From Jimgerdemannia flammicorona (taxonomy: Eukaryota), in contig RBNJ01000069.1 of NCBI GenBank assembly GCA_003990765.1, positions 1-44,293 on the forward strand: DNA of 44,293 bases. The letters are read 5' to 3'. A model generated the notes under the pieces. That model was not told the origin of the DNA. It worked only from the letters and a program-made list of their open reading frames with translations, and searched no databases. The translations under genes were made by a program, and so were the position numbers. Below, in pieces: positions 15,303 to 43,513 of this stretch (the first letter of the stretch is position 1; every line of letters starts with the position of its first letter).

Positions 15303-15372
15303 CTAAGTACCAAGATGCGTCGGAACAGAGAACCAAAACAAAATAACAACCACAACTTCCAAATACACAAAC

Positions 15373-16470
15373 ATGACCACCAAGATCTATACCTACATCT
15401 GTGCTGACATTTGGAATGCCATTGTCAACCGAGCCATGCCCCCTCTGCCCCTCATGAATATCCATAGCCTGGCACCCCTCTACTTCGTGGAAGCCCGGTG
15501 GAATGCTCTGAACATGCTTAGTGAGGCCCACTGAATTGGACAAATCTCAAGCTACTACCAGATTGGCTGCCTCCTGGAAGACATGGTTGAACACCACCAT
15601 GATATAGACATTACCGAGATGTCTCAACACCAGAAGCTCATCGCCTGCAAACATCGAGAACTCTTCTACGAGTACAGTACCATTATTCCCTGCCTCCGAG
15701 TTATCACCAGTGAAATGATTGCTACCCTGTCCTATGGCCAAATCGATGACATGATACAAGAACTCAACCACAAGTACCTCGAGTATGTCAAAACCACAGA
15801 CAGAACCTTCCCACACCCCAACGATCATATCCTACAAATGCCCCAAGTTGGATATGCCATGAAGGACATCTATGATATAATCCACTTCGATGAAGACAAA
15901 GCAGAAGACAATGATCCCTCTGATGCTGATATGACCTCAAGCCAAGGATCTCTACCAATCCTGATCATACCACCAACCCTGCCAATGAACCTACAACAGT
16001 TCATAACCACCTATAAGACTTATTGGGACAATGACCACTGGCATGAATACCAATCCACATTTACCCCCAATTACTTCAACTACAATGAAGAGACTGGAGA
16101 ACACAACCTGTACCTTCAGACAACCCTCAAGATCGAACCAACCACTCCACCACCCAAGTATGAGTGACACAAACCACAGCTGCCAGCTTACTACAAACCC
16201 GTGACTCATAGTGCTGTAACCTATAGAAGGTACACAGACAGCAAATCCGATGAAAGTGAAAACAATGCACCCCTCCTTCACCTGCCAACACCTTATCCAG
16301 CATATGAGACAGATGATGCCATCCTGTGGGACAGAGACGAAGTTCCAATGTATTATTACCTCAGTGAATAAGGAGAAGTAATCTGCGAACCACTCTTCCT
16401 AGATGACTACTTCATCAGAGATGACGCAATTGATGGTAATGTTATCAAAGACTACCCAGACAGTGCCTAA
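15373..16470 (+). pseudogene. LTR(U3)-encoded ORF of Gypsy-1, ~365 aa, unknown function (5' LTR copy)
   Basis: One frame from ATG (MTTKIY) to TAA (YPDSA*), 1098 nt; internal stops are mostly sense codons in the other LTR. Confidence 0.85.
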
Positions 16471-16659
16471 ACTCATAAATAGCCAAGCAGTCATAGTATA
16501 GTTATATTAGCCTTGTACGACATAACTGTGAACTGGCTCAGCAGTCAGATGATCTCTTGATATGTCAGATCACACTTGTACTATGTGACTGCATTCCAAC
16601 TCAGTAAGGTACTTAGTGCTACATCCATATTTAGCATAGTCCAGATAGCCCCTTACTAG

Positions 16660-16788
16660 TATAAATACCCCCTCCCCCAGACCTCAGAATCTCAGACTCA
16701 AATTCACAAGAACATTCCTGAATACTTCCCCACAATACCCCTTCACACAACCACTCCTAGTATAGCAATATCATGAATAGCAAATAAA
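16660..16788 (+). promoter_or_regulatory. Candidate LTR TATA box and downstream poly(A) signal (U3/R)
   Basis: TATAAATA 16660-16667 and AATAAA 16783-16788, both present in the 3' LTR. Confidence 0.55.
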
Positions 16789-16893
16789 CCTATTCCATAA
16801 CCCACAAACCACTCTTAAGTAAATCCGCTCTCTGTTAGGTCCTACTCCTAACTCCTTCACGAAATTTCCTAATTGGGTATTGTCTGCAGCAAT

Positions 16894-18180
16894 ATGCCAA
16901 TTCAACTAAGCTGGTCTTAGTTTCTTGAACTTCCTGAAATACGGAAAATCCTGAACATCCAGAACTAGTCCAAAAAAGGACTTTGGTTGAGATGTCAACC
17001 CGATCTTGAAATCAATAAGTGTAGAGGACATACTCCATATGAAATTGATCTTGACCATAAGAAAATGGTCTTCCAGAATATCCAGAACTTCGAGAAAACC
17101 CTTCCAGAACTACATAATGGTTACCCTAAAAAGCAACCCTCTTACAACTTGGTAGCAGCAGTTTACAATCCAATTCTGCTTCAAGATGCTTCCTCACCCC
17201 ACTACAAATCCCTCTGTGAATTCCTACAAGTTGGTATAAAGCCCAACCTCTGAACTGGAATTTATCCTGAACCATCTGACAATCTGGAGAGAATTGAACC
17301 TGATGTACAAGGACAATTTGACCTCCACACCTGCAACAAGTGGGACAAACTTCACTCAAAGAAAGAAGTACTCCGATTAAATCAGCAAATAGGCGAAACC
17401 CTATTCACCGAACTCCTTGCACTACACCCAGCAAGTCAAGATGAAGAAGGTCTTATTGAAGCCTTCTTTACTCTTCTCAACAAGAGTTTTGTCAGCTCTA
17501 CAAATCTGAGCGACCTAGGACAACCAGCAGCAGTCTTTCTAGCCTTAGTTCCTCATGAAGCCCAAGCCTTTGTAGCCAAGTGGCTCAACTCTACTGACTT
17601 TCACCGTACCAGGACCAAGACTGCATTATACTACTGATTCCAGAACAGCAAGGCCTGCCATATTCTTAAAGAAGAAGCAAGAGAAACCCTTCATCAACTA
17701 TCTGATCCTGAACCTGAAGCAGGCCCTGCTACAGCCCTATCTGAACCTGAAATCAATACCGAACCTGAACTTGATCTTGAATTAAGTCCCTCTGAAATCA
17801 GATATACAACTGATTCTGTCTACTTTGACACCAAGTAAACCCAACTACATGGGGACCAAACCGAAGAGGAGGAGGAGTATCTCACTGAATTTGATCCCGG
17901 ATACACCACAGAAGAAGACGCACTCCCATCAGGACAGAATACACCTACACAACAACAAACAGCTATCTATCAAGCCCTTACTCCAGATCCACAACTACTA
18001 CTCCAGCAACTTACACAGACCCAAAGAACCCCATCACTCTGCACCAGTACCTCAAGTAGTACCAGTAACACCACTACCAGCCATCCAACTACCTCCAGTA
18101 AACAACATGGCGAACCAACAGATTCTCAATCTCACAGCCCAAGTGGCTATAATAGCAGCAACCATTACTACCTTAGCTGA
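16894..18180 (+). pseudogene. Gypsy-1 ORF0 upstream of gag, ~428 codons, begins inside the LTR and crosses the PBS
   Basis: One frame with only 5 internal stops (16918, 16966, 17251, 17635, 17836); protein-like composition; overlaps the gag start in another frame. Confidence 0.65.
17150..17161 (+). other. Primer-binding site, probably tRNA-iMet
   Basis: TGGTAGCAGCAG 3 nt after the LTR end; TGGTAGC is typical of initiator-Met PBSs. Confidence 0.75.
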
Positions 18181-19159
18181 ACAGACCTGACCTACCAAAA
18201 ATCTGAGCCTACCTATCTTCAATGGTACTGCACAAGAAGTCCAAAGCTTCATTAGTGTAGTTGAGACCAACTTTGAAGCCAATCAATGGACCAATGAGTG
18301 AGTTGCTGACCGTGTTCTGACAAACAATCAAGACCACACACTGGAACAACTCTTTGCTACCACTACAGCCTATGTCCGCCGAGTTGTTACATTCTTCCAA
18401 GGACCTGCTGAAGAATGGTGGTGAACTCTTCCTGAAAAGCCCCTCACATGGGATACCCAACCTATAGTAGTTGCTCAGAATGCAGCAAACAATGCCCCAG
18501 GATATGGAGCCCATCCTGCAGCCCCAGGACTCAAACAACTCATGATTGCTCAATACCACAGTGAAACCATGATTACTGAATCTCGAGTAAAACTCCGCAA
18601 CCTCAAATTTGATGTACATGACAAAGAAGAATTTGAAACCTTCTGTATAAAACTTGAGTCACTCCTGAACACCATTGGCCTAGGATACATTGCCAATGAT
18701 GAAGCAGGAAATTGTACAAGAGCAGACCATTTATTCGATGCCCTGCCTGAATGGCTTACTAGAAAAATCCGAGAACAAGGCCGCCCAGTTGGTTGTGATA
18801 ACCAATAATGGTGCCTGGCAAGAATCAAGACTATGGTTAAGTGAATCCTAACAGCTGGACCCATTCTGCCCTGAAGACAATTCAACAATAAGGAAAGAAC
18901 TTAGACTAAGAAAGAAGAACCCAAGCATGAAGCATCCCGAGCTCCCTCTACATCCACCTCTTGGACATCCAGAAATCATGAACCCACCCAACCGAGTGCC
19001 TTCAAGAAACTCACTGAAGGCGAAAGAAATGAACTTAGAAGAAGTGGAGCATGCTTCTATTGCCGAAAGACAGGACACATGGCCAGTACCTGCCCTACCT
19101 GAACAGCAACACGAGCTACTGTTACCACTCTGTACCACCTCAACAATCTGACCACCAAA

Positions 19160-19570
19160 ACACTAGATTTTGTTAAGTTAAGACAAACTGCGAAGGCCCC
19201 AATCAAAGGAAGTTAAAAAGCCGCTGGATATGACCTGTATGCAGCCGAGGAAGCTACAGTTTCCAACCGAGAAGTCAAATAAGTTTACACAGGAATCAGC
19301 ATCCAAATCCCTGAAGGACATGTTGGAAGAATATGCTGTCACAGCAGCCTAGCATTGAAAGGACTCTCAGTAGAAGGAGGAGTCATTGACAAGGATTACA
19401 CAGGAGAAATCATTGCCCTCATCTGAAACCACAGTTGGACATCCTTCAAGATCCCTATAGGGTTCTGCATTGCCCAAATCCTATTTGAAAAAATCGAGTC
19501 AACCCTGACAGTCAAGGAAGTCCCTGAACTACTGCCCACCAACTGAGGATCTAAAGGATTTGGTTTATCA
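19160..19570 (+). other. dut: dUTPase domain between nucleocapsid and protease (Gypsy-1)
   Basis: Trimeric dUTPase motifs AAGYDLY, HSSL (=RSS), GGVIDKDYTGEI, IAQILF, *GSKGFGLS. Confidence 0.92.
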
Positions 19571-22500
19571 ACAAAGGCCCCAGCCCAATCTACCACAAAC
19601 AAAGAAGAACAATTCTATAAGAAAATCGAAAATAGATATGTACCAAGTGGCTGATGCCCCCATGGCATTAGAATGTACTCTTCCCGAATGATTGACAATT
19701 GCTTCTCTTGTGTTAATGAACTGGCTCAAAGAAGAACCAACAGAAGTAAAGCTCCTATAACTGAAATTACCACCATTGGATCAGACAAACTGCTCACCCT
19801 CAAGGCTTTTGTCAACCGAGCACCTGTCAAGATTATGATAGACAGTGGTGCCTCTGGTAACTTCATCAATGAAGAAACAGCCAACAGACTCAAGGTCTTC
19901 ACCTCTCCAGTACAACAAACTCAAGCAGTTGCTACAGCTGATGGAAACTCACATATTATTAGCAAAGAAGTCTGCAATCTACCCCTCCAAATTGGTGACT
20001 ACCAAGTACATGTTACCCTCGAAATCGTACCACTCCCTGACAATGAAATCATCCTTGGGACCCCATGGTTAAAACAAGAAAACCCCATGATCAATTGGGT
20101 AAACCATTCTCTGACCATCAAGAAAGGATGCCACAACTTCAAACTGCAAGGCAAGAAGGACCCACTCATTTCTAGTGACCCTGGACCAAAGATCACCCAC
20201 ATTAATAAGTTATAACTCAAGAAATTGGCCAAGAAAAGCCCTCTCTTCGCGATCTCCATTCACCCATCCAAAGGAGAACCCGAGAATTCTGAAGAAGACT
20301 TTTCCAAAGTTAACAGCCATGTCAGACCACTACTTCAGAAATTTCGAGATATATTCCCAAAGAAGCTTCCGAAAGGCCTACCTCCTAAACAAGCAGTAGA
20401 CCATGCCATCAAGACCATTCCAGATGCCAAGCCAGCCTTCAAGTCAATCTACCATATGTCTCCAAGAGAAATTGATGCACTCAAGAAGGAAATCGATGAA
20501 CTCCTAGAACAAGGATTCATCAGACCTAGTGTATCACCCTATGGTGCACCAGTCCTCTTTGTTGTAAAGAAAGGAGGAGACCTGCGAATGTGTATTGATT
20601 ACCGAGACCTCAACAAACAGACCATTAAGAACTATTGCCCACTCCCCAGAATCGATGAAATATTTGACAGGCTTACCAACCCACAATTCATGAGCTCTTT
20701 TGACCTATGAAATGGTTACTGGCAAATTGCCATGAAAGAAGAAGAAATCTACAAGACAGCCTTCCAAACTCGCTATAGACACTTTGAGTTCTTGGTTATG
20801 CCCTTTGGCTTAAATAATGCCCCAGCAACCTTCTAGATACTGATGAACACCATTCTACATCCATACCTGGACAAATTTGTCATTGTCTACATTGATGACA
20901 TCCTAGTCTTCAGCAAAACCTTGAAGGAACATCTTGAACACCTTGAACTAGTACTACTGAAACTCCAAGAAAACCATCTCTTTGCAAAACTCAGCAAGAG
21001 TGAATTTCTTCTGAAAGAAATTCAATTCCTTGGACATATTGTCACCCCAAATGGAATCAAAGTGGACCCCAGCAAAATCTCCACAATCAAGGATTGGCCC
21101 AGACCCAAGAAGCTGAAAGAACTCCAGTCATTCCTGGGATTAGCAAACTATTACAGGCGATTTGTTGCCAACTTCGCTAAAATCACCTCTGCCCTTACTC
21201 AAATGACCAAGTACAACAAGAAACAAGAACAACCCTGGACCATGAAACAAGAAAAAGACTTCAACAACCTTGTAACTTGGGGACCCGAATAAGATACAGC
21301 CTTTCAAGCACTGAAAGATGCCTTGATAACTACTCCAGTACTTCAAGTGACAAATCCTGCCCTACCATATGAAGTTACCACTAATGCTTCTGACCTGGCC
21401 CTTGGAGCCGTCCTCATGCAAGAAGGACATCCTGTGGCCTATCACTCCCACAAGTTCAATGATGCCAAAATCAACTATGCAACTTATGAGAAGGAGATAC
21501 TAGCCATCATGGACACTCTGATCAAATGGCGACCCTATCTAGAAGGAGCACACTTTACTGTATTGACTGACTACAAGTCATTAATCAACATCAAGACACA
21601 GGCTACCCTTTCTCGAAAGCAAGCCAGATGGATGAAAGTCCTCACCAACTTTGACTATAAAATCCAGTACTGCCCTGGCAAAGAAAATATTGTTGCTGAT
21701 GCAATCTCCAGACCACCAATCGAAGAAGTTATCCAAACTCTCACCTTGGTTACAAACTCCATCATGGAACAAATTATCACAGCATGTACTGATGATAAAG
21801 AAGCTCAAGCACTCCGTGAAATCCTAAACAGTGACGATGCTGACAAACATAACTGGTACAACCAATACCAACTCAAGGACAATGCTATCTACTACTAAGA
21901 CAGACTGTATATCCCAAACAACTGAGACCTCCGAAGGACTATCCTATTTGAATGTCATGATGCCCCTATAGCTGGACATTTAGGATTTGATAAATGTTAT
22001 GAAGTTATCTCTTGGAACTTCTATTGGCCCTGCATGGCAGATCAGCTCAAAACCTATATCACTTCCTGTGATGCCTGCCAATGAAACAAGTCCTCAATAC
22101 TAGCAAAACCTGGCTTACTACACCCTATCCCAGTACCATTTGCAAATTGGGAACAAATCTCTATAGACTTCATTGTACAACTACCCCAAACCAAGAACAG
22201 AAAAGATGCAATTGTTGTCTTCATGGACTATCTCAGCAAACAAGCCCACTTTATGCCAACTACCACTACCGCAACAGCACCAGACATAGCCACACTCTTG
22301 TTTGATAATATCTTCTGCTATCATGGTCTTCCCAAGATCATTGTTAGTGACTGAGACCCGAAATTCACCAGCTATTTTTGGAAAGCCCTCCATATACACC
22401 TTGGAACAAAGCTTGCACTATCCACAGCCTTTTACCCAGAAACTGATGACCAAACTGAAAGAATGAACTGAACTCTAGAATAAATGCTAAGAACCTATGT

Positions 22501-23062
22501 TTCCTACAGACAAGATGACTGGCATGAACATCTCACCACAGTGGAATTTGCTTATAACAATAGCAAGCAAGCCTCTCTTGGAATGACCCCATTCTTCGCC
22601 AACACCGGACAAAACCCGAACAATCCTTTGACACTCATCCGAACTACTGAAGAACCCTCTACAGTCGAAGCTGTTGAAGAATTCTTACTCCGAATGCGCA
22701 ATCTATGCCAGATTGCAATTGAGAATTTATCACGAGCCCAAGAACAACAGTCACAGTATGTTAACCAACACCGCTGAGAAGAAATCTTTGATATTGGAGA
22801 AAAGGTTCTACTAGACATCTGAGGATACCGAGTTGACAACCTCAAGCATAGACTATTCACAAAGCTGAACAGTAAGTTTATTGGACCATTTGAAGTCATT
22901 GTACAAGTTTCTCCAACCTCTTACAAATTGGCGCTACCAGACACTATTAAGATTCACCCAGTCTTTAATGTTCAATGTCTCAAGCAATACAATGAGAATG
23001 ATGATGAGCTATTTCCAAACTAGACCACCAAACCACCTACACCTGTCATTATTAATGACCAA

Positions 23063-23215
23063 GAAGAATACAAAGTTGAAAAAATCTTCAACAAACGTGG
23101 CAACAAGAGCCACCCTGAGTACCTTGTTAAATGGAAAGGTTACCCAATCCACGATGCAACCTGGGAACCCAAGACCAATCTCCAGAATACTACCGACCTA
23201 GTTCAGGAATATGAT
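23063..23215 (+). other. Chromodomain at the integrase C-terminus
   Basis: EEYKVEKIFNKRGNKSHPEYLVKWKGYPIHDATWEPKTNLQNTTDLVQEY. Confidence 0.93.
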
Positions 23216-23360
23216 TCCTTGAACAACTGAAACCAAAATACTCCAATACCTACTAGTATATACTATATATTACCCTCCTGAACATTATAATTATCATGAA
23301 CCTAATCAAGAACTCAGTAAGACAGAACAATTAGAAGACCTGACGAGGACATCAAAAGCT

Positions 23361-23373
23361 AAGAAGGGGAGAG
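23361..23373 (+). other. Polypurine tract of Gypsy-1
   Basis: AAGAAGGGGAGAG just before the 3' LTR. Confidence 0.9.
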
Positions 23374-23374
23374 T

Positions 23375-25400
23375 TGTAAGCGCACAACCTCCAAGTCACT
23401 GAAATCACATGCAACCTCCGAACAAATCTGGAAATCACCTGCTTGATCATGAAGCTGAGTCAAACTGAAGTCACAGTGCACAAAGCTGAGTCAATATGAA
23501 GTCATAGAACACAAGATCCATACAAATGGAATCTTACCAATCAGGACCAAATGTATATATACCAAGTACCAAGATGCATCGGAACAGAGAACCAAAACAA
23601 AACAACAACCACAACTTCCAAATATACAAACATGACCACCAAGATCTATACCCACATCCGCACTGACATTTGGAATGCCATTGTCAACCGGGCCATGCCC
23701 CCTCTGCCCCTCATGAATATCCATAGCCTGGCACCCCTCTACTTCGTGGAAGCCCAGTGGAATGCTCTGAACATGCTTAGTAAGGCCCACCGAATCAGAC
23801 AAATCTTAAGCTACTACCAGATCGGCCGCCTCCTGGAAGACATGGTCGAACACCACCATGATATAGACATTACCGAGATGTCTCAACACCAGAAGCTCAT
23901 CACCCGCAAACCTCAAGAACTCTTCTATGAGTACAGTACCATTATTCCCTGCCTCTGAGTTACCACCAGTGAAATGGTTGCTACCCTGTCCTATGGCCAA
24001 ATCGATGACATGATACAAGAACTCAACCACAAGTATCTCAAGTATGTCGAAACCACAGACAGAACCTTCCCACACCCCAATGATCATATCCTACAAATGC
24101 CCCAAGTTGGATACACCATGAAGGACATCTACGATATAATCCACTTTGATGAAGACGAAGCAGAAGACAATAATCCCTCTGATACTGATATGACCTCAAG
24201 CCAAGGATCCCTACCAACCCTGATCATACCACCAACTCTGCCAATGAACCTACAACAGTTCATAACCACCTACGAGACTTATTAGGACAATGACCACTGG
24301 CATGAATACCAACCCACATTCATCCCCGATTACTTCAACTATAATGAAGAGACTGGAGAACATAACCTGTACCTTCAGATAACCCTTGAGATCGAACCAA
24401 CCACTCCACCACCCAAGTATGAGTGACATGAACCACAGCCACCAGCTTACTACAACCCTGTGACTCATGGTGCTGTAACTTATAGAAGGTATGCAGACAG
24501 CAAATCTGATGAAAGTGAAAACAATGTACCCCTCCTTTGCCTGCCAATACCTTATCCAGCATACGAGATAGATGATGCCATCCTGTGGGATGGAGATGAA
24601 GTTCCAATGTATTATTACCTCAGTGAACAAGGAGAAGTAATCCGTGAACCACTCTTCCTAGATGACTACTTCATCAGAGATGATGCAATCGATGATGATA
24701 TTATTGAAGACTACCCAGACAGTGCCTAAACTCATAAATAGCCGAGCAGTCATAGTATAGTTAGATTAGCCTTATATGATGTGACTGTGAACTAACTCAG
24801 CAGTCAGATGATCTCTTGACATGTCAGATCACACTTGTACTACGTGACTGCATTCCAACTCAGCAAGGCACTTAGTGCTACATCCATATTTAGCATAGTC
24901 CAGATAGCCCCTCACTAGTATAAATATCCCCTCTCCCAGATCTCAGAATCTCAGACTCAAATACACAACATTCCTGAATACTTCCTCACAATACCTCTTT
25001 ACACAACCACTCCTAGTATAGCAATATCATGAATAGCAAATAAACCTATTCCATAACCCACAAACCACTCTTAAGTAAATCCGCTCTCTATTAGGTCCTA
25101 CTCCTAACTCCTTCACGAAATTCTAATTGGGTATTGTCTGCAGTGATATGCCAATTCAACTAAGCTGGTCTTAGTTTCTTGAACTTTCTGAAATATGGAA
25201 AATCCTGAACATCCAGAACTAGTCCAAAAAAGGACTTTGGTTGAGACGTCAACTCAATCTTAAAATCAATAAGTGTAGAGGACATACTCCATACAAAATT
25301 GATCTTGACTATAAGAAAACGGTCTTCCAGAATATCCAGAACTTTGAGAAAACCCTTTCAGAACTACGTAACGGTTACCCTAAAAAGCAACCCTCTTACA
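23375..25400 (+). repeat. Gypsy-1 3' LTR (2026 bp)
   Basis: Direct repeat of 15116-17146, followed by TSD AATAT. Confidence 0.97.
23632..24729 (+). pseudogene. LTR(U3)-encoded ORF of Gypsy-1 (3' LTR copy)
   Basis: ORF-track pieces 23551-23958, 23974-24285 and 24460-24729 are in one frame; 1098 nt, as in the 5' copy. Confidence 0.85.
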
Positions 25401-25405
25401 AATAT

Positions 25406-29782: not shown

Positions 29783-29854
<72 letters not shown>

Positions 29855-29929
29855 GTCACTAGGACTTCCTTCCTTTATTATACCCATCTATCCCATATAA
29901 AATTACAGTGAACCCACCCTCTATCCAAT

Positions 29930-32900: not shown

Positions 32901-33577
32901 ATATCACAGGCACTACTCTATCTCAAATGTCTTTCAAACATCTACACCCCAACACTCAGCTGTCAGAATCCAGTCAATTCTTGTATCCAAGCCATTCCCC
33001 CAATGTGTGTAGACCCTAGTGTTGCCCTGCTGTATTCTGCCCATATCCCCTAAGGAGCTCAGATTCTCTACCTCCTCCTATGTATCCAGAACACCACTTC
33101 TCCTTTCTGTATTTCTCCCTCTATCAGATCTATCTAGATGCTGATCAAATCATATTAAAGTCTCCTGTAAGTACATCAACCCCTTCCTCCAAGAGAATAT
33201 CCTCCTCCAGCAGCTCCTTAATTCATACAGTCCTCTTGCCCCTAACTGCTGGGCAGTAGCAAGAGCCAACCCTCACCAACTTCCACCCTAGTTGATGCCA
33301 ATCTTCCCACACCAAGCAATCACCCCAGCTCCTTATTCCCCCCAAGTCTCCTCTAACCTTCCTCACCAGAATCACTACTTTGTCAAATCAAGCAGTAGCC
33401 CCACCCCATTCCCAAGTCCACTCTACTCGATTGTCCTCATCCTCACACTATACATCCTGTAGTAAAAGAAGATCAGCCTCCAATCCCTTGAGCTACATAA
33501 GTAAAAATGTTCTTACATCACCCAGATCCCCTTAACCCATTCACATTCAAAGAGAAAATATTGGTTGTACTGTTTAT
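29930..33577 (-). pseudogene. LINE-C ORF2: APE endonuclease, RT and C-terminal Cys/His region
   Basis: SLNVNG, APGEDGLPWDFW, KNWRP, FADD, CEKCYN..PEY..GEC; end approximate. Confidence 0.9.
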
Positions 33578-33608
33578 AAGAAATATTGTTATATATTGAT
33601 CCCATCCT

Positions 33609-35552
33609 CTATAAGTCTACATTCAACTCCTCCTGTGCTAAATCTAAGTCATGTTCAGCAGCAAGTTCCTTTGCTCCAGCTTCCTGTGCCTCCAACCCTC
33701 TCAGAAGTTCTACCATCACTCTATCTTCTTTCTCCTCAAAGTCCTCATGATACTCCAGACAGGTATCCTGCCAGAGCTGCAAACCATGATGCTCTGTCTA
33801 ACAGTAAACAGCCCACTCACCAGCAACAACCACCAGCTCCACCTCTCACACCTTATCAACCTCATACCCCTCCTCCTCTATGAAGATTATAAGAATCTCC
33901 ACCTTCAGCACCTCTACTACTTCATCTCTATGCAGAATCTGTACTCAATTTTCCTCAGGCATTACAAGTAGGTCCACTTCTCCCAACTCCTCAGTCATGA
34001 GGTTATCCATCACCTTGCTCATCCACAGCTAGTTCCCCACCTCCTTCTCTCTTATTGTCTCTGGCTGCCCAGCATCTAACATTATGGTATCAGCTCCTAC
34101 ACTAGCAGCCTCATCCCACTCCTCCTCTGGGACATCCTCGCCAACTGCCACTACTTGGCCCCCTTTTGCCACATCAGGGACCCCAAAGTGTACTTGCTAG
34201 GCCCCCTGCATCAGCACATCTTCCACCACTCCTTGCTTCCCCACTGGGCCCCTCCTGATAAGAGGGGGGGAGTGGGATCCAACTCCTGCTCCCAGACTTC
34301 AAACATACCATCTGTATAGGGGCCTTCCTTATTCACCTCTATCTCCCCTTCTTCTTTACTAGCCCAGACACTGACTTCAATACCCCCAGACTCTTCAGCT
34401 CTATCTACCTTCTTTACAGCCCCTTCTCTCATATTTGCCAACAGCTCTCTCTGCCTTATACATCTCTGGGTCTGCTCCCACTACACCTTATCAGTTTGAA
34501 TCTGCTTCCTATCAATAATTTCCAGATGCATCGACTCCTCATTCAATTTCCAGACCTTTGCCCTCCTCTCAATAGCACTATACAACTCCTCCAGAGTCTC
34601 TAACAAGTCCTCTTCCTCCTCATCATTCCCTCTCACCCTCAATACCTTACAGATAAATGTCCCCCACATCAATACTAAGGGCCAGTCACTTGTCTTCCCT
34701 ATGGCCTCTCTTCCCACCAGTTTAATCCTCACATCCACATCACTAGTCCTAATAGCAGTCCTCTCCCACACCTGGAAACCTATATCAACTACATCACTAT
34801 ACTCTGCCATCACCCCCTCCACCCTCCTCCTAGTCTTCTCCTTCATCACTGTAGGCACCCCCTTCACCAATAGCTGCACTACTCTGGGGTCCCACCTCAG
34901 GCAGCACATCATGGGGACCACCACCTCCCCCACTGTCACTCCAGTTTTCAGAGCCTCTTCCAGTGGGCCCACCTTCTCAAAGCCCACCTCGACCCCCTCC
35001 AGACTCTTCAGGAACTTTATCAAGGTAGCCCCAGCCACTTGCTTCAAGACAAGCCCCAAGACCATCCTCACTATTACCACCAAGCCTTGTAAGCACAGTG
35101 TCACTGCAAACTCCAAGATCGATTTCCTGAGTAACTGTGCCACCATTAGCCCCATTACACCATCAGTCAGATCTCCCTTCCACATTGAGAACCCCTGTCC
35201 CATACCTCCATCAACTGTTACATCTCTTTTTTTTTCCTGATTGCCTGTACACTTCTATCAGCAGTCCCACCCCTAGCCACAGCACCTCCAGCACCTATGC
35301 TCACATCTCCCACCTGAGTACCTCCCCCCCTCCCTAGGCTCACCTTGCCCTTTCCCACAGCAGTACCAGCCCTAGATCGCTGGGCCTCCTCCCATTGCTA
35401 CCAGACACTGGTCTCCCTTCAGAGTCCTTGCCATCCTTTGACCCTCCAAAGGCCCCCATCCCCAGACCATAACCCCTCCCAACATTCTGCCAGCCAAAAG
35501 CCTCAGGTCTATCTGACCCGGCACATTCATCAGAACTCTTGCTTGATGACAT
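33609..35552 (-). pseudogene. LINE-C ORF1
   Basis: MSSSKS start; 240-aa piece 34481-35203 is highly similar to LINE-A ORF1. Confidence 0.85.
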
Positions 35553-36228
35553 TTCTATAATACCTTTTCTCCAAGTTATGTTGAAAACTGTTGCTTGAGA
35601 TTGGTGTAATATGAATTGTACAGGAGAAAGGTCATCAAGCTACAAGATACCACTTCCATGGATACATGCAAAACAAGGACAGCTAAGAAGATCTATCAGA
35701 TCTTCAGGCATGCACTATAGTCAATCCCCAACTTGGAGTATATTAGAGTCTCAAGACCTGTCATCCCACTATATCAATGCACTAGAAGCCAGGGTGGCTA
35801 GAGAAGCCCAGTCTACTATTACTCTCAATAGTAATGAAGTAAAAGACTTCTGGCACCCCATTCTCCAGGACAACCCAGACCAATTTCTGCAAGGATTGAT
35901 CTCAGAATTCCAAGGCCCAAGCATCTAGGTTAGACCTCTCCAAGACCCCACATTTGTTTCCTATTTTGTGGAAGAGAACCTCATAGACTGGAGAGCTCCA
36001 GATCTCCTTATTCCCGATTTTCCTATCACCAAACGTAATGATGTCATTGGCAATAATATCATCCCATGGGATATATGTGAGATATGTGATGAAGTATGCA
36101 AAATATGTGAAATACATGACCTATATGATGAATTCACAGACCTCATCTCCTTCAAAGATATCCTGATCTCTGATGATGAGGATGAAGCCTCCATAGTTCT
36201 GAACATTCTGCTCTAAGTTCCTTATCAC

Positions 36229-36350
36229 ACTGAATAATGCCAGCACCAGTATTCTGAGGTAATACTGAATAATGTCAGCACTAGTATTCTGAGATAATAC
36301 TGAATAATATCAGCACTGGCATTCTGAGGTAATACTGAATTATACCAGCA
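36229..36350. repeat. 35-bp tandem repeat x3.5 with an internal dyad, in Gypsy-2 U3
   Basis: Unit actgaataatRYcagcacYRgYattctgagRtaaY at 36229, 36264, 36299, partial at 36334. Confidence 0.9.
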
Positions 36351-36478
36351 TCCTAAACCTGTACAACTATCAGTACCAACTCTGAAACTTAGCAGTTTTT
36401 CCTGTCCTGGTATATTATTTTAGTTATTGGATTTTTATATTTAGCTTTATATCTTAGTAACCATTGAATTATATTTTG

Positions 36479-36511
36479 TATAAATACTTCTCTTATTTTC
36501 TCTAAAATAAA
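36479..36511 (+). promoter_or_regulatory. Candidate LTR TATA box and poly(A) signal of Gypsy-2
   Basis: TATAAATA 36479-36486 and AATAAA 36506-36511; same in the 3' LTR at 43775 and 43802. Confidence 0.55.
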
Positions 36512-36717
36512 GTCAGTTCTAGTTCACTTATAAACACTTCCTTGCAAGCAATCTAAGAGATAACAAGACAGTTAAAGATAAGAAGTTTGAGGACTATAAA
36601 ACCTTAGGAAGGCACTCTAATAAGAACTTACTTTAACAAACTTGAGTTAGTCTAAGAGATATACCTTGAAGGGAATCTGATATATTTGAAGGACTCAGTG
36701 ACTACTATGTGACAACT

Positions 36718-36734
36718 TGGTATCCATTGGCTGG
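36718..36734 (+). other. Candidate primer-binding site of Gypsy-2 (tRNA not assigned)
   Basis: TGGTATCCATTGGCTGG 3 nt after the LTR end, with the same ACT spacer as Gypsy-1. Confidence 0.65.
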
Positions 36735-36834
36735 TGATTCAAGATGAATCCCTCACTTTCAAACTGAAAAATGAACAACCCCCACAATAACTACCCTGAC
36801 TATAAGAGTTACCCCTGCAAGAATCTAAGATAAG

Positions 36835-39800
36835 ATGGAAATATATCTCTGTATATTCTATTGATATACTACTGAAGAGTCAATCCTAATCTTTATTGAA
36901 GACTTTGAACAATTTGCCACCATATGAGCCCTTGGTGTAGATGTATAATTAGTCCTTCTACTAGTCAGTCTCAGAGGACCTGCTAGAGATAAGTTCAATA
37001 TAGCCACTATTGCTAATACTGGTATAGCTAAACTTACCAACATGAAGGCCTTCCTCAGAACAACATATTTACTGAAGAGATCAAGCAAGCTCACAAGGAT
37101 CAACTCAATACTATCTATCAGAGACTTAGTGAAGATCCCAACTCATTCTATATCTGAATCTGTCACCAGATTATCTTGGCTGGCTATGATGATGCCCTCA
37201 AGGAACAAATAGTGGATTCAACCTTTCTCAAAGAAGTTCACTCTGAAATTGCTCTAGCAATCTGGTCTACCCCAGCTGCACTGACTCTTGATCAGAAAGT
37301 GATCTTTGCATAGAGATATTGGACTGCCAGACACCCTGCCGAACACTCAATAGAGAAAATAACTGGCATCAAGATGGAGCCATTAAGGCTAACTAGTATC
37401 ATATATACCTACCATAGTTATAAACAGACAACCAACCCCACCTACCCCCAAGGTAGCCAAAGCTGACCCAGTGGAAGAACTCATCAAGCAGTTTGCCAAG
37501 ATGACTATACACCTTAGTGATGTTGTTAGAGAAGTCTGAAGTGCTAACAGGAGACCAGGTTAGAGATTTGCAGCTGCTATAAAAGAATGCAATATCACAT
37601 GTTTCAGATATTGAGAAGAAGGCCACTATGCAAAGAATTGTATAACCAAAATGAGATGCAAGGCCCAATCAAGTAATACTAGCAGAACTAGAGAACAAAC
37701 CAATACAGTAGTCATTGAGGAGATTGGTGACACTGATGATGAAGAATACTATGAGGAGCTCAAATTCTACCCTGCTACTGAAGATACCAGAACCCAGTCC
37801 AAGCCCTATGACAAGAAGAGCAACAGCAAGCCAGTTGGAAGACCAAAGAAGACCCCAGCTGTCACTATTCAAAACAAGACCTAATCTGAGGAGATTGATC
37901 AAGATATGGAGTTAGATGAAGCTACCTGCCAAATTATTGAAGGCACTACTCCAGTCTCAGAAGAAAGTGAAAGCAAGAAGGAACAGAAGCCATGTAAGAC
38001 CAAGATTCACTAATATGATATCTACAAGGACCTCAAGGAACAGAAGGTCAATGCTACTTTTGGACAACTAGTTGAAGTCTCTGCCTTCAGACAACAGTTG
38101 AGAGTAGGACTTGCAACTACTGCCAAGAATCTAGAGTACAAGATTGTAGAAGCTCACAATGTACAGAAAGAATCTGAAAACTCAGGTGAAGAATCTGAAG
38201 ACCAGCACAAGACATCAGCCTATACCCCATGTCAGATTGAAGACTGTATCTTTGATGCCATCATTGATACCAATGCTGGAGGATGCCTTATAAGTAAGAA
38301 GACAATTGACTGCCTAGGTTGGGATATTGAAGAGTCTACCAAGATAGTCTATGTTATAGCAAATGATATATGAGCTACCCCTATTGACAAAATCCCAGAA
38401 GTCCCCATCAAGATATGAGGAGCTACCATCTCAGTAGATGTGATTGTTATAAGTGCCACCAACTATGATATCCTCATTGGCAACCAATGGCTTTACAAGG
38501 CCAAGGCCATCATTGACCTCAATGCCCAGAAGATACCAATCAACTATAGAGGAAGAAAGATACAAGTCTCTATCAATATCTACAAAGAAGTCATACCAGA
38601 TATGGAGGAAGGAGATGAAGAGGACACAGAGGTCTTCATGCACTCAGTGAACAAGAACAAGAACAAGACACCCAAGCTCACAGATGAGCAGTAGTACAAC
38701 AAGATCATCAATGGCTATGCTCCTCAAGAAAGATGCCTCCATGGTATTAGAATGTACTACTCTGAACACCTGAATGACTGCTGGTCCTATATCAGTGAAG
38801 TTAGGAAAATCTGCCAATAGAAATATGAGCAAGAAGCCACTGAAGCAAAAAGGAAAGCAGAAGAAGATGACCAGCCCCCAGAGCTTCAGGCTGACAGTGA
38901 TAATAAGGAGGAACAAGAATCAGACATCACTCTCAAGGTTAAGAAGTTTTATCCTGAAGCTAAGATCCCTGAATATAAGACTGAAGGAGCCATAGGAATA
39001 GACCTTGCCAGCATTCAAGATGCTACTCTTGAACCACAGACCACTACTCTACTTGGTACTGGAATTGGAGTCAAGTTGCTAGAAAACTATACTGGAATTA
39101 TCAAGACCAGGAGCAGTCTGGCCAAAAGCAAAATCTCAGTTGAAGGAGGAATAATTGACCCTGATTACATGGGCAAGATCTTCCTTATAGTCAGGAATTA
39201 CAACTTCACCACCCCATTCGAAGTCAAGAAGCATGACAGGATTGGCCAGCTGCTGATCTACAAAATCAAGAAGTCCAAGATCATAGAAGCCATTGAACTT
39301 ATCAAGACTAAGAAAGAAGAACAATGCTTTGGATCTACTAGAAGAGGAGCCTATACTGCCACCAAGATTACTGAACTTGAGCACAAGAAAGACAAGGACC
39401 AGAACAAGCACACATACACTATTGGAGAAAACTTTCTCCTGAAAGAATAACTTCTCAAGATTCTGTACCAGAATGAAGGAGTACTTGCTATAGACTTCAG
39501 GGATATCTACAATAAAGAACCCAAGTACTACTATGAAGTTGACTCTGGTGATACCAAGTCCATCTATCAGAAAGCCAGACCCATACCATCTGCCTACAGA
39601 GAATGGCTGAAAGCAGAACTCAAGGAAATGGAAGAAGGCAGAATCATCAAGCGACCTATCAGCCCCTGGGCCTCACCCATTGTTCTTGCCCTGAAGAAAG
39701 GAAGTAAGCTTAGAGAGTTTATATCTAGACTCTATATTGACTATAGGAAGCTCAATGCCATCACTAAGAAGAATAGGCAGCCCTTGCCAAATATTCAAGA

Positions 39801-42051
39801 AATCCTTACCACTCTTAGAAGCAAAGCCAAATACTATACCACTCTGGATCTGTTCTCAGACTTCTATCAGATTGGTCTCACTCAAGATGCCAGTGAGAAA
39901 TCAGCCTTCATCATACTGATACCACCTATATCTACCTGCAAATGCTATTTGGAATATGCAATGCCCCAGCAAGTTTTCAGTAAATAATAAATAGAGTCTA
40001 TAGCAATGAGATTGGAAAATAGCTCTTTGTCTATATTGATGATGTGATCATCTTCAGCAATACTGTACGAGAACATATCAATCACATACAGCTAGCCCTC
40101 AAGAAGCTCAAGAAGTATGGTCTTTATATCAAGCCCAAGAAATACAAGTTTGTAGCTCAGAAAATTACCTACCTAGGACACCTCATCAACCAGACCAGAA
40201 TCCACACAGACCCTATGAAGATTGAGACTGTTGTAGCCTACTTAAGACCCAGGACAACTACAGAATTCCATGTCTTCCTTGGACTGGCCAGCTACTACAG
40301 AAGATTCATCAAAGGATACTCTAATATTGTAACATCTATCTACAAGCTACTGAAGGAAACCAAATTCAAATGGACCAAGGAGTACTAAGAAACCTTCAAT
40401 GAACTCAAGACCAGATTGACCCAAGCACCTATCCTTAGAAGACTAGATTGGAACCTAGAATTCATCCTGCAGACAGATGTATATACTATAGGACTTGGAG
40501 AAGTCCTAGCTCAGAAGAAAGATAGACATGAATATGTCATCTCCTATGCAAGCCAAGGTACCCACAGAGCAGAATAGAACTATGAGTCATGCAAGCTTGA
40601 ATACTTAGCAGTAGTCTGAGCAGTAGACAAGTTTCACTACTATCTAGCTGGGAAACACTTCACTATTCAAACAGATCATTCTGCTCTTGCCTGACTATTC
40701 CACACTCTAAACCCCAAAGGAATATATGCCAGATGGATCTACAGACTGCAAGAGTACATATAACTGTACTGTCAAGCACCCCTCAGGAAGAACCAACACC
40801 AATGCTGATACACTCTCAAGAACACCCTGAAACACCCCTATCAAGACTATTCAATATGAATAAGGAGCTATACTATGGATTAATCAGCTATCTTGGGCAG
40901 TAGAAGATGCCCAACCACCTCGAACCCTAGACAATCACTATCATCAACCAGACTTGGAAACAGTTTGAACTAGAAAACACTACACTCAGAAAAGGAGGAA
41001 AGCTAGTAATACCTGAACATAAGAAGTATCAAGTAATGAAGGAAGTACATGAGCAAGGACACCTTGGAGGAATCAACAATATGACAAAGCAAGAAGAACT
41101 ATGTAGTGGCCCAAGATGAAAGAAGACCTGCACCAATTTGTCAAAGGGTGTGACAAGTGCCAAAAACAGAAACAAGATCAGCAAGACCAGGCACCCAGAT
41201 CATCTAGAATTGAGCCTATCCCCTTCTACTACATTGCAATGGATATCATTAGACCACTACCAGTAACACTATCAGGAAACTACTATATTATAGTTATTGT
41301 AGACCTCTTCACCAAATGGATAGAGGCAGGAGCATTACAAGAAGCCAATGCCCTCTTTATAGCCAACTTCCTGTACTGAGAAATCATCTGCTGCAATAAG
41401 ACACCAAAGCAAATTACAACAGCCCACAGCACAGAATTTGTCAATGGATTTCACAGGTTAATGTATCAGCAATATAAGATCCAGAACATCAAGACCACTG
41501 CATACCATCCTCAAGAAAATGGACAGACAGAGAGAACTAACAAGACCCTCAAGAACATTCTGGCAAAGATCTTAGAGACATATGAGAATTGGGATAACTA
41601 CCTCCCAACTACCCTCTCTGTTCTATGAGATATATGATCACAGAGTACACACTTTACCCCAAGGAAACTGCTCTTTGGAGAAGAAGATTCTGATAGAACC
41701 TCAGCCACAAATCTAGACCTAACTTGGAGATGGGTTGATGTAGAAATCAGGAGAATACACCAAATCAGGAAGAAGGCTAAAGATTACATCAACAAGTTAC
41801 AAGTGCTGATAAGAAAGAATGTGAAAAAGAATCACAAGACCCTAGAACCTATTCAAATCAGAGAAAAGGTCCTACTGTATTGAAATATAGTAGAAGCCTC
41901 ATGGTCACAAAAACTGGAGCCCAAATGAAAAGGACCCTTTTATATGCAAGATATCAAGAGAACTACCTTCTGGCTTAGAAAAATCTCAGAGACCATACTG
42001 CCTACTACAGTATATAGGAATAGACTCAAGAAGTACCATGAACCTATATAA
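36835..42051 (+). pseudogene. Gypsy-2 gag-pol: Gag, degenerate CCHC knuckle, protease, small Cys/His module, dUTPase, RT, RNase H, integrase (no chromodomain seen)
   Basis: CFRY*EEGHYAKNC at 37600; IIDTNAG at ~38266; SPWASPIV; YIDYRKLN; YIDD at 40032; FLGLASYYRRFI; H..GH...CDKCQ; KGPF..NRLKKY. Stops and frameshifts. Confidence 0.92.
38932..39342 (+). other. dut: dUTPase domain between protease and RT (Gypsy-2)
   Basis: AIGIDLA, TRSSLA, GGIIDPDYMGKI, DRIGQLL, CFGST. Confidence 0.92.
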
Positions 42052-42405
42052 GAGAAGCAAATCATAATGGCCACCCACAAGGTTCTAGTCTGTGAATCAT
42101 AACAGTATGTCCCATGACCAGCAGGCTATCTATCTAGACCATTCTCTAAGGAATACAACACCAGTAACTACTTATCTGTGAGACTTTTGAAGCCAGAGGA
42201 GTTCAAACCATCAACTGTTTGATCAAGATCAGAATCAGGCCTTTGCTTTATATGAAGGGAGCAACCCTTCACCATCATGCCAAAATACAAAGGGAAGACA
42301 CCAGCTCATAAATACCACTTTTTGACTCCTTCCCAGAGGTTATGGGATCAGTAAATTTTTCAGGACTGGACTAATGAATAAGAATGCTCAAGAAGATCCT
42401 TATTC

Positions 42406-42415
42406 AGAAGGAAGA
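42406..42415 (+). other. Polypurine tract of Gypsy-2
   Basis: AGAAGGAAGA abutting the 3' LTR. Confidence 0.8.
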
Positions 42416-42657
42416 TGTAATGGTGACCCCAGAAAGATGACATTAGTACAGGAGACATTCTTTTCTTACAAAGCCACCAGATCAGAGCACAAGATGATTA
42501 TATGGCATATGAGATTAGCAATGGTGACCAACTGTGAATCATTGTGACCACAGTATGGATATCTTGAGGAATATAAAAGAAGGATCAAGGAATCACAGTA
42601 ACAGTAATCAATAAGACCCACTAATCTCAAATAGCTCAAAGACTCACTACAAATGAA

Positions 42658-43513
42658 ATGTCTACTGCTTGCCAAACCTCAAGGTCAAGGAATCACTAAG
42701 GCTTCTCAGTTGAAGAAAGGATGTTCTAAGACATCAGAAGAGCCATGAGGATCTGCTCAAGAAGAACTCCTAGTGTCAACCTAGATACTGCAGATCTCTA
42801 TCATTATATTCTCTACTACTATGAAATGGAAACAAGGATCACCATTGCTACTGAATGCCTCCAAATGTGGCAGGAGTATGAAATAGGAAACCTCCTCTGC
42901 TGGGAGTTCCCACAGACCAGTACTCAAGAGCTACAAGATGCCACTCCTATGGATATATGAAATAAGGACAGCCAAGAAGATCTATCAGATCTTCAGACAT
43001 GCATTATGGTCAATACCCAACTTGGAGTATGTTAGAGTCTCAGATTTCCGAGACCTGTCATCCTGCCTTATCAATGTACTAGAAGCCAGGGTGGCTACAG
43101 AAGCCCAGTCCACTATCACCCTCAATAATGATGAAGTAGAAGACTTCTGGCACCCTATCCTCCAGGACAACCCAGCCCAATTCCTGCAAGGATTGATCTC
43201 AGTATTCCAAGGCCCAAGCATCCAGGTTAGACCTCTCCAAGACCCCACATTTGTTCCCTATTTTGTAGAAGAGAACCTCATAGATTAGAGAGCTCCAGAT
43301 CACCTTATTCCCAATTTCCCCACCACCAAATGTGATGATATTATCAGCAATGATATCATCCCATATGACATACATGAGATGCATGATGAAGCATGTGAAA
43401 TATGTGAAACATATGACCTAAATGATGAATTCGCAGACCTTATCTCCTTCGAAGATATCCTGACCTCTGATGAAGAGAATGAAGCCCACATGGTCCTGAA
43501 CATTCTACTTTAA
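42658..43513 (+). pseudogene. LTR(U3)-encoded ORF of Gypsy-2, ~285 aa, unknown function (3' LTR copy)
   Basis: ATG 42658 to TAA 43513; one 2-bp deletion near 42959 and a few stops, each repaired by the 5' copy. Confidence 0.82.

Follow-up and report, generated by a model that had tools for sequence, protein, structure and literature searches.

The accessory genes known in LTR retrotransposons lie in the internal region, and to our knowledge only retroviruses such as MMTV have a complete gene inside an LTR: the superantigen ORF of MMTV (sag) lies in U3 of the LTR and encodes a type II membrane glycoprotein of a vertebrate betaretrovirus. Foamy-virus Tas/Bel1 and Bet and HIV/SIV Nef are products of genes that begin internally and only overlap U3, and Tas is a transactivator whose C-terminal activation domain is acidic. 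Here we analyse 44,293 nucleotides of Jimgerdemannia flammicorona (contig RBNJ01000069.1 of assembly GCA_003990765.1; hereafter the window), in which two Ty3/Gypsy elements, Gypsy-1 and Gypsy-2, each appear to have carried an accessory gene located entirely within the LTR, where genes are seldom found. Like sag, each would be a complete gene of ~300 codons within a long LTR (here most likely in U3) and so present in both LTRs; unlike sag, the two genes encode acidic proteins without a Pfam match, belong to Ty3/Gypsy elements without env, and are immediately preceded, within the LTR, by a promoter-like TATA. The acidic C terminus of foamy-virus Tas/Bel1 resembles the basic-N, acidic-C make-up of the two proteins, and Tas/Bel1, Bet and Nef are likewise encoded by accessory or regulatory genes at or in the 3′ LTR (a role that we presume for the proteins described here). 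However, in Gypsy-1 and Gypsy-2 the whole ORF and its putative promoter are inside the LTR, and Pfam and PDB searches gave no sequence similarity to Tas/Bel1, Bet or Nef.

The accessory ORFs (aORFs) of other LTR retrotransposons (that is, in plants, ORF0 of Ogre/Retrosat2, gene23 of Grande, those of RIRE2 and Retand and the env-like gene of Athila, and elsewhere bdelloid ORF3 and CERV of C. elegans Cer1) resemble the two genes in being family-specific and fast-evolving, with an unknown or regulatory function, and differ in being internal (either 5′ of gag or in the stretch from pol to the 3′ LTR), whereas the genes in the window are located in the LTR and duplicated with it. In the available portions of the respective papers, Retrosat2 ORF0 shows ~10% similarity between relatives in which pol remains similar, and ORF1 above 60% (PMC3485330), the ORF3s of bdelloid rotifers are internal and spliced (PMC5408684), and the dUTPase of Ty3/Gypsy elements is found at the Pol N terminus or between PR and RT (PMC2864245). 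The dUTPase-bearing fungal chromoviruses (Postia placenta PosPlaTy3, Phanerochaete and Tuber Tmt1) are similar in being Ty3/Gypsy elements with dUTPase at varying sites, and Gypsy-1 has a chromodomain as they do; they differ in that no LTR-borne ORF is reported for them in the available text, in which an ‘add. ORF’ is named in a figure (PMC2864245). The accessible parts of the full-text literature (including PMC7264820, PMC3485330, PMC5408684, PMC2864245, PMC6431247 and PMC12037069, with subscription journals, Repbase entries and supplements outside this scope) describe no ORF wholly inside a Ty3/Gypsy LTR, and the aORF review among them makes no mention, in its accessible text, of ORFs in, within or inside the LTR (PMC7264820).

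Gypsy-1 (15115–25401; plus strand, as are all features below unless stated) has a 5′ LTR at 15115–17147 (2033 bp) and a 3′ LTR at 23374–25401 that are 93.4% identical, with termini TGTAAG..CTTACA and the TSD AATAT. Its internal region (17148–23373), in which every domain is broken by stops, comprises the PBS TGGTAGCAGCAG at 17150, a gag CCHC motif (~19049–19096), dUTPase (~19190–19570), PR (19655–20212), RT (20216–21289), RNase H (21293–21895), integrase (21923–22990), a chromodomain (23069–23215; Pfam PF00385, E 4.4e-16) at the integrase C terminus that identifies the element as a chromovirus, and the polypurine tract AAGAAGGGGAGAG. Gypsy-2 (29258–44012) has 1.6-kb LTRs that are 87–88% identical, termini TGTAAC..GTGACA, the TSD ATAT(T), the PBS TGGTATCC and the polypurine tract AGAAGGAAGA. 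Its 5′ LTR is split by a LINE into a first part (29258 to about 29775–29780) and a second part (about 35638/35643 to 36715), and its 3′ LTR is at 42416–44012; 35-bp repeats are present in the 5′ LTR (three copies, 36229–36340) and in the 3′ LTR (43524–43647). The decayed internal region of Gypsy-2 (36716–42415) contains the PBS-like TGGTATCCATTGG, gag with CCHC, PR (~38218–38541), dUTPase (~38956–39339), RT (39451–40385), RNase H (~40446–40757) and integrase (~41077–41511), and because no chromodomain was detected (Pfam, E up to 0.05) we leave it out of the chromoviruses. Both elements have the TG..CA LTRs, TSD, PBS beside the 5′ LTR and polypurine tract before the 3′ LTR of Ty3/Gypsy elements (Metaviridae), and Pfam matches in both follow the order PR–RT–RNase H–integrase, the dUTPase lying between NC and PR in Gypsy-1 and between PR and RT in Gypsy-2. 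As both are canonical elements of the type gag(CCHC)–PR–RT–RNH–INT, the LTR ORFs are extra genes; an identity as gag is ruled out by the gag with CCHC knuckle that each element possesses. The pol regions of the two elements share only 27–38% identity and their LTRs show no DNA similarity, the latter as stated in the initial annotation. Scans for tRNA and Rfam families over the whole window found nothing.

The initial annotation had placed frames in both LTRs of each element, and their coordinates were borne out. In Gypsy-1 the ORF (365 codons plus stop) occupies 15373–16470 in the 5′ LTR, with in-frame stops at codons 54, 255 and 329, and 23632–24729 in the 3′ LTR, with in-frame stops at codons 109, 219 and 255. 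Two of the three stops in each copy are private, the other LTR of the element having sense codons at these places, whereas the stop that both share (codon 255) is Q in the related protein P0001. In Gypsy-2 the first 92 codons of the 5′ copy (29500–29775) are open, followed by the LINE (a non-LTR retrotransposon with an RT domain; 29776–35636, minus strand, 5.86 kb), an 8-bp deletion near 35753, one in-frame stop and the remainder of the ORF up to the stop codon at 36214–36216. The LINE has a 67-nt poly(A) tail (read as poly-T, 29785–29851), and AAGCTA is duplicated at its borders (29770–29775 and 35637–35642). The 3′ copy of Gypsy-2 (42658–43513, ~285 codons, stop codon 43511–43513) consists of an N-terminal part (42658–42957, two stops) and a C-terminal part (42965–43510, one stop), between which a 2-bp deletion near 42958–42964 breaks the frame. 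None of the four copies is intact; each has stops or small indels, which fall mostly at CpG/CpA sites. The differences between the two Gypsy-1 copies (31, 15 and 32 at the three codon positions; 28 synonymous and 46 non-synonymous codon differences) represent post-insertion decay and are uninformative on selection in the active element. The peptides quoted in the initial annotation are present, some of them only as a mixture of both copies.

We propose, with moderate confidence, that each of these Ty3/Gypsy families has its own accessory gene contained entirely in the LTR, with U3 as its most likely location, and that the four copies in the window are dead relics. In each LTR, the gene would lie between an upstream TATA-type promoter (~160–180 nt into the LTR) and the main TATA and AATAAA. 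The LTR may form a self-contained cassette, with a promoter, an ORF and a terminator of its own, from which a monocistronic mRNA could be produced by every LTR, solo LTRs included. The copies in the window would be relics of two old insertions that decayed through CpG/CpA transitions, small deletions and the LINE insertion, and the genes would have been functional in the active elements; related open copies are present in soil metagenomes. The product might be a regulatory accessory factor (for example, an acidic-tail transactivator or an RNA-handling factor), and a regulatory accessory protein is the function towards which we lean. A gene in the LTR has two copies per element and persists in solo LTRs after the element is lost; its product might for that reason still work in trans when gag–pol has long gone, possibly on the transcription or silencing of the whole family. 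We offer only tentatively, and as something that may well prove wrong, the wider view that, in this lineage, at least two deeply divergent lines of Ty3/Gypsy elements have LTRs that are self-contained U3 genes for a fast-evolving basic-N, acidic-C regulator (a transactivator, RNA-export or anti-silencing factor). Every LTR, solo LTRs among them, would express this regulator independently of gag–pol, and the gene would either be old and common to both lines or have been acquired more than once at one and the same place in the LTR. Should the cassette reading hold, thousands of LTRs in such genomes would be small protein genes masked as repeats by annotation pipelines, and they would provide a tractable example of a selfish element whose protein evolves very fast.

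Both proteins have a basic N-terminal half and an acidic C-terminal half (+4 to +8 in the first 60 residues, net −21 to −42 overall), a charge profile that agrees with the acidic tails described previously for both. The helical N-terminal part that had been suggested is also predicted for both in AlphaFold2 models, although assignments of helix or disorder are weak because both models are unreliable (pLDDT 38.6 and 31.5). Pfam searches with the window copies and five relatives (E up to 1) yielded only sub-threshold noise and no family, and neither protein is a member of the retroviral families covered (Sag, Nef and foamy Bel); a PDB sequence search returned nothing better than E 0.43, and the ESM Atlas gave noise-level scores for the Gypsy-2-type protein P0006 (best 0.83, TM up to 0.33) and no usable feature match for P0001 (TM at most 0.30). 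The lack of Pfam and PDB matches accords with the earlier statement that no characterised family of this kind is known in fungal Ty3/Gypsy elements. A resemblance to proteins common in Glomeromycotina proteomes, which had been mentioned there, was not recovered: only two relatives for Gypsy-1 and six to eight for Gypsy-2 were found, all of them metagenomic. We regard both proteins as lineage-specific orphans, in which the N-terminal half is mildly basic and predicted to be helical and the C-terminal half is strongly acidic and probably disordered.

The initial annotation had also aligned the two consensus proteins with each other; such an alignment can be drawn and is not above chance. Smith–Waterman comparison gives z 0.8–1.5, with the score reached by 37–100 of 500 shuffles, and hhalign gives a probability of 0.3–0.6% (P 0.098–0.2), with 19 of 150 column-shuffle controls reaching the observed score. 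The gap-free 35-residue block, credited with 9 identities, has 8 in the actual 3′-LTR copies, and 9 is the shuffle mean (9.1–9.2) and is reached by 248 of 300 shuffles. A tblastn search of the Gypsy-2 LTR with the Gypsy-1 ORF gave no match at E up to 10, and phmmer with the Gypsy-1 protein against 1.84 billion representatives returned no Gypsy-2-family protein. The two proteins are alike in position and general make-up, and their kinship fails every test run. These results make it doubtful, although still conceivable, that the two are true homologues descended from one ancient LTR-borne accessory gene that was inherited by both lineages and diverged past recognition. Such descent would fit the placement of the ATG (LTR position 259 in Gypsy-1 and 243 in Gypsy-2, in both 75–85 nt downstream of a TATA-like box), the common charge profile and predicted helical N-terminal halves, and the independent choice by hhalign of the same colinear alignment as in the initial annotation (Gypsy-1 8–108 to Gypsy-2 21–123). 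A second colinear motif towards the C-terminal part (P.F..YF.....ID, 11 identities in 35 residues) is equalled in 12 of 300 shuffles when P0005 is the partner but in 103 of 300 with P0006, and the structure models are unusable for a fold comparison. Given that pol is only 27–38% identical, an unrelated look is expected of a fast-evolving accessory protein, and rice Retrosat2 ORF0 proteins fall to the ~10% similarity given above (PMC3485330, available portion).

In the Gypsy-1 5′ LTR, a promoter-like region (15197–15303) contains TGAGTCA at 15197 and 15228, inside a twofold 31-bp repeat, together with a TATATATAC box at 15295; after this box, an A/C-rich leader devoid of ATG extends to the ATG at 15373. 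Downstream of the ORF, a second TATA box (GTATAAATA, 16659) and AATAAA (16783; together 16659–16788) are the probable genomic-RNA promoter and poly(A) signal, which would put the ORF in U3. The Gypsy-2 5′ LTR has TGAGTCA at 29377, a TATA-like box at 29412, the ORF start at 29500, a second TATA at 36478 and AATAAA at 36506, and in its 3′ LTR the two TATA boxes are at 42570 and 43774 and AATAAA at 43802. Both LTR types therefore have the order TGAGTCA, TATA, ATG-free leader, ORF, GTATAAATA and AATAAA, with the ORF ending 190–260 nt upstream of GTATAAATA and AATAAA 20–120 nt beyond it, the U3/R/U5 limits and both promoters being read from consensus motifs. That TGAGTCA precedes both ORFs was noticed post hoc, and over the whole window the motif shows no enrichment (13 occurrences versus 10.3 expected). 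Because the ORF is upstream of the strong TATA/AATAAA pair of the LTR, it is probably in U3, and the shared layout suggests a self-contained gene cassette there.

Sequencing depth bears on this layout. In run X8, whose label as RNA is a guess, Gypsy-2-type LTRs reach a depth of 511–1936, ORF included, versus 0–68 in the interior, whereas the DNA-like runs X1 and X2 have an LTR/interior ratio of about 1–2; we take this excess as a lead on expression and nothing further. The Gypsy-1 ORF region has a depth of 5.5–7.5 in X8 versus 1795 in the LTR downstream of the ORF, so that, if X8 is RNA, the Gypsy-1 cassette is without visible expression in it. The raw reads of run X21 hardly match the stretch at all (65 partial reads, of which 59 are less than 90% alike), and as the unique flank 25914–29088 is covered by none of the sequencing runs, none is shown to be from the organism of the window itself.

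An unlikely alternative to placement in U3 is that the ORF occupies a very long R/U5 leader, with the upstream TATA as the genomic promoter and the protein as the first cistron of the genomic RNA, comparable to the ORF0/ORF1 that precede gag in plant elements of the Ogre/Retrosat2 type. The TATA-like box and ATG-free leader directly upstream of each ORF, the X8 depth across the whole Gypsy-2 LTR and the R of 2023 bp proposed for Retrosat2 (PMC3485330, available portion) would be compatible with such a leader. However, the better TATA (GTATAAATA) followed by AATAAA downstream of each ORF is the classical U3–R arrangement, an R of ~1.2–1.5 kb would need transcription to run past the 5′-LTR poly(A) signal, the Gypsy-1 depth in X8 climbs only past the second TATA, and the Gypsy-2 interior is at least 10-fold below the LTR in that run (with its guessed RNA label), which argues against a single genomic RNA.

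That the frames in the LTRs were genes is supported by their relatives. For Gypsy-1, phmmer against the 1.84 billion representative proteins gave two real relatives (P0001, 247 amino acids, 62–64% identity; P0002, 128 amino acids, 84% identity), both open and colinear with the same C terminus; two further matches (P0003 and P0004) were dropped as internal-repeat artefacts (6–9 matched stretches in repetitive proteins). For Gypsy-2, six relatives (eight with cluster members, from 5.8 billion clusters) include the intact 271-residue P0006, which spans the frameshift of the window copy, and five others at 57–72% identity. Relatives of both, at 57–84% identity, keep the frame open across the breaks in the window with the same start and stop; all are from short metagenome contigs and were predicted by gene calling, a source biased towards open frames. 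Scans of metagenome and viral contigs for the encoding DNA gave pattern matches only, none encoding a relative. In neutral simulations to the observed amino-acid divergence, the frame stayed open in 6 of 400 runs for Gypsy-1 and 19 of 400 for Gypsy-2, and at half that divergence, a conservative setting that makes the simulation only moderately decisive, in 49 and 85 of 400 (12–21%). The invariant columns of the Gypsy-2 family are clustered in blocks to a degree matched by 0 of 2000 shuffles. Along the Gypsy-1 ORF stretch, the ORF frame has 3 stops versus 16–35 in the other plus-strand frames and 6–25 in the minus-strand frames, and the LTR outside the ORF has 6–21 per 677 nt per frame. The stop deficit in one frame of Gypsy-1 and the open relatives support the initial reading of the LTR frames as protein genes, and both LTR pairs appear to hold the remains of a genuine protein-coding gene in elements that are now dead. 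It is very unlikely that the frames are chance open frames in A/C-rich LTRs or captured fragments of host genes, as the missing family, domain or fold, the breakage of every window copy and one stop-poor antisense frame of the Gypsy-1 ORF (6 stops) might suggest, against which stand the relatives with conserved start and stop, the blockwise conservation in the Gypsy-2 family, the confinement of the stop deficit to one frame, the lack of any host-gene-like, longer or differently built match among the 1.84 billion representatives, and an ORF base composition equal to that of the remainder of each element. A contig from run X8 has the Gypsy-2 LTR in a form without the LINE insertion.

Two Ty3/Gypsy elements were delimited on the forward strand by self-comparison of the window, Gypsy-1 (G1; 15115-25401) and Gypsy-2 (G2; 29258-44012), both of which hold protein frames inside their LTRs. 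The LTRs of G1 (15115-17147 and 23374-25401; 2033 bp, 93.4% identical) have TG..CA ends, and the element is flanked by a 5-bp target duplication (AATAT) and contains a PBS (TGGTAGCAGCAG) as well as a polypurine tract; the G2 pair (87-88% identity) comprises a 3′ LTR at 42416-44012 and a 5′ LTR in two parts (29258-29775 and 35643-36715) separated by a 5.86-kb insertion. A Pfam scan gave the domain order gag CCHC, dUTPase, PR, RT, RNase H, integrase and chromodomain for G1, and gag CCHC, PR, dUTPase, RT, RNase H and integrase for G2, with stops throughout all reading frames of both. Each element thus has a gag of its own, to which the LTR frames are additional. The two elements are indeed distant, as first described, with a pol identity of just 27-38% (RT 36-38%, RNase H 30%, integrase 27% and dUTPase 33%). 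The dUTPase domain lies between nucleocapsid and protease in G1 (19190-19570, forward strand) and between protease and RT in G2 (38956-39339, forward strand), which, together with the 33% identity, agrees with separate or mobile gains of the domain as discussed for fungal elements; a variable dUTPase position in fungal Gypsy elements is already described (PMC2864245). Eleven bases spanning the 5′ LTR end and the PBS start (ACAACTTGGTA; 17143-17156 and 36711-36724) are the same in both elements; outside them the PBS sequences diverge and the elements are otherwise unalignable.

In both G1 LTRs the frame is 365 codons long (ATG at LTR position 259, stop at 1356) and is interrupted by three in-frame stops per copy. 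Two of the three in each copy read as sense in the sister LTR, and the common stop (codon 255) is Q in the metagenome relative P0001. The G2 frame begins at LTR position 243; its 3′ copy carries a 2-bp deletion about 100 codons in and three stops, and its 5′ copy is broken by a LINE, an 8-bp deletion and one stop. In contigs of sequencing run X8, the 8 bases lost from the 5′ copy are present and the LINE site is bridged. Sister LTRs differ almost exclusively by transitions at CpG and CpA/TpG, and CpG is depleted across the window (observed/expected 0.0-0.36). The four copies are old relics with decay of the methylation or RIP type.

The LTR frames are nevertheless more open than chance. Over its 365 codons the G1 frame contains 3 stops, against 16-35 in the other two forward frames and 6-25 in the reverse frames, and the remainder of the LTR outside the ORF has 6-21 stops per frame over 677 nt. 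Searches for G1 relatives with phmmer against 1.84 billion representative proteins, and with word-indexed searches of 5.8 billion clusters, returned two real ones: P0001 (247 amino acids, 62-64% identity), which spans G1 residues 115-365, has the same C-terminus and aligns with two in-frame gaps of 2 residues each, and P0002 (128 amino acids, 84% identity), which begins at the identical M. Two further phmmer matches were dropped as internally repetitive proteins. For the C-terminal part of the G2 protein there are six relatives with 57-72% identity (eight sequences counting cluster members), among them P0006, an intact 271-residue protein that reads through the frameshift present in the window and shares both the start and the end (...LN(I/F)LL) with G2. 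The source of every relative is a short metagenome contig (720-2375 nt).

In a simple neutral simulation (400 runs), in which window codons were evolved to the observed amino-acid divergence, the frame stayed open in 6 runs for G1-P0001 and 19 for G2-P0006 at full divergence, and in 49 and 85 runs, respectively, with half of the divergence on one lineage; as the metagenome relatives are gene calls, they have been selected for open frames. The invariant columns of the G2 family are strongly clustered (none of 2000 shuffles matched the observed clustering), forming a conserved core and an acidic linker that is rich in indels and almost without invariant columns. We consider it very probable that the frames are genuine genes of the active elements, and the existence of intact relatives strengthens the original observation of protein frames inside the LTRs.

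The initial annotation had further proposed, from sequence alone, that the G1 and G2 LTR proteins are homologous. This is not supported. Smith-Waterman scores of 42-43 compare with shuffle means of 35-37 (z 0.8-1.5), and 37-100 of 500 shuffles scored as high; the best BLASTP E value was 0.47, tblastn of the G1 ORF against the G2 LTR gave no match, and no G2-family protein was among the phmmer matches of G1 in the 1.84 billion representative proteins. Profile-profile comparison with hhalign recovered the proposed colinear alignment (G1 8-108 to G2 21-123, 20% identity) at P 0.098-0.2 and a probability of 0.3-0.6%, a score matched by 19 of 150 column-shuffled controls. The 35-residue block on which the proposal drew holds 8 identities in the real copies, and the best ungapped block of this length in shuffled pairs averages 9.1-9.2. 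The strongest real block is instead a C-terminal motif, P.F..YF.....ID, with 11 identities when P0005 (a G2-type relative) is used (12 of 300 shuffles as good) and 10 with P0006 (103 of 300). At such low pol identity, homology of an accessory protein that evolves fast could have become unrecognisable, for which Retrosat2 ORF0, in the part of the article available, is a published parallel (PMC3485330). We regard common descent of the two proteins as rather unlikely.

The order of signals is alike in the LTRs of both elements. TGAGTCA occurs at two sites in both G1 LTR copies and at one in the G2 5′ LTR, the corresponding 3′ LTR site being mutated, followed by an upstream TATA-like box (G1 15295 and 23554; G2 29412 and 42570), an ATG-free, A/C-rich leader of 45-55 nt with A at -3, the ORF, a second TATA (GTATAAATA; G1 16659 and 24918; G2 36478 and 43774) and AATAAA (G1 16783 and 25039; G2 36506 and 43802). 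Together, the second TATA and AATAAA form a classical U3-R layout, from which we infer that the ORF lies in U3. Three 35-bp repeats follow the G2 ORF (3.2-3.5 units; 36229-36340 and 43524-43647), directly 3′ of it and 5′ of the second TATA, an enhancer-like placement; none were noted there in G1, in which a 31-bp unit present twice (23452-23514) bears TGAGTCA 5′ of the first TATA. With its upstream TATA, each LTR may be able to make its own mRNA, which would end at the LTR poly(A) signal. In X8, a small run labelled RNA by guess, depth over G2-type LTRs including the ORF is 511-1936 against 0-68 in the G2 interior, compared with 543-855 and 375-527 in the soil metagenome X1 and 30-40 and 8-31 in run X2; G1 is deep in X8 (1795) only 3′ of the second TATA, with 5.5-7.5 over the ORF region. 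The unique flank of the window has no coverage in any run. The X8 pattern would fit one mRNA per LTR and is a lead, short of evidence for expression, as contigs have no power to show transcript ends.

Both LTR proteins have a mildly basic N-terminus, arginine-rich in the G2 type, and are then strongly acidic (net charge -21 to -42), with a tail dotted with hydrophobic residues (for example, ...DLISFEDIL..DEEDEA). AlphaFold2 models of the G1 protein (pLDDT 31.5 from 4 sequences) and P0006 (pLDDT 38.6 from 9 sequences) are unreliable; both are helical for the first 140-185 residues and show little structure thereafter. A basic helical N-terminal half with an acidic tail is the look of regulators with acidic activation domains, such as foamy-virus Tas. 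By this analogy, a regulatory accessory protein of the element is a tentative reading, within which we slightly prefer putative transactivation; the arginine-rich N-terminus and leucine-rich end of the G2 protein would also suit an RNA-export adaptor. The window copies and five relatives match no Pfam family; PDB gave no sequence match and the ESM Atlas nothing usable.

Nearest in architecture is MMTV sag, which sits complete within U3 of a long LTR, and next come nef and the foamy bel genes, both reaching into U3; by Pfam, the window proteins belong to none of these families by sequence. Additional ORFs are well documented in LTR retrotransposons and, in the portions of the articles available, are placed in the internal region (PMC7264820, PMC3485330, PMC5408684, PMC6431247), and searches of openly accessible full texts turned up no gene lying entirely within the LTR of a Ty3/Gypsy element. 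There remain two orphan accessory genes, each embedded in the LTR of its element at an equivalent position, in two Gypsy lines that have diverged deeply.

The LINE in the G2 LTR (29776-35636, reverse strand) is one of three decayed copies, the others lying at 1850-6804 and 7000-12778 (forward strand), all with RT and APE hits and poly(A) tails (30, 51 and 67 nt). On their sense strand G far outnumbers C (0.356 versus 0.133; GC skew +0.4 to +0.56), an extreme bias for which simple C-to-T decay is insufficient because the AT skew is too small. CpG observed/expected is 0.02-0.08 in G2 and the LINE, 0.25-0.36 in the younger G1 and 0.0 in the AT-rich 3.9 kb between the two elements (25402-29257; 24% G+C); with the transition pattern, this near-absence suggests a host with heavy methylation of cytosine or a RIP-like mutation process. 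Between LINE debris and G1 (13816-13860) lies an interstitial array of telomere type, 7.3 units of TAACCC (TTAGGG on the complementary strand), and all three repeat families are present in soil metagenomes. A soil-fungus host would fit the chromovirus and dUTPase Gypsy elements, the TTAGGG-type repeat, the AT-rich CpG-free unique DNA and the soil-metagenome presence. The LINE copy at 7000-12778 also contains a 47-bp tandem repeat (8331-8483; 3.3 units, 95% matches) with TGAGTCA in each unit.
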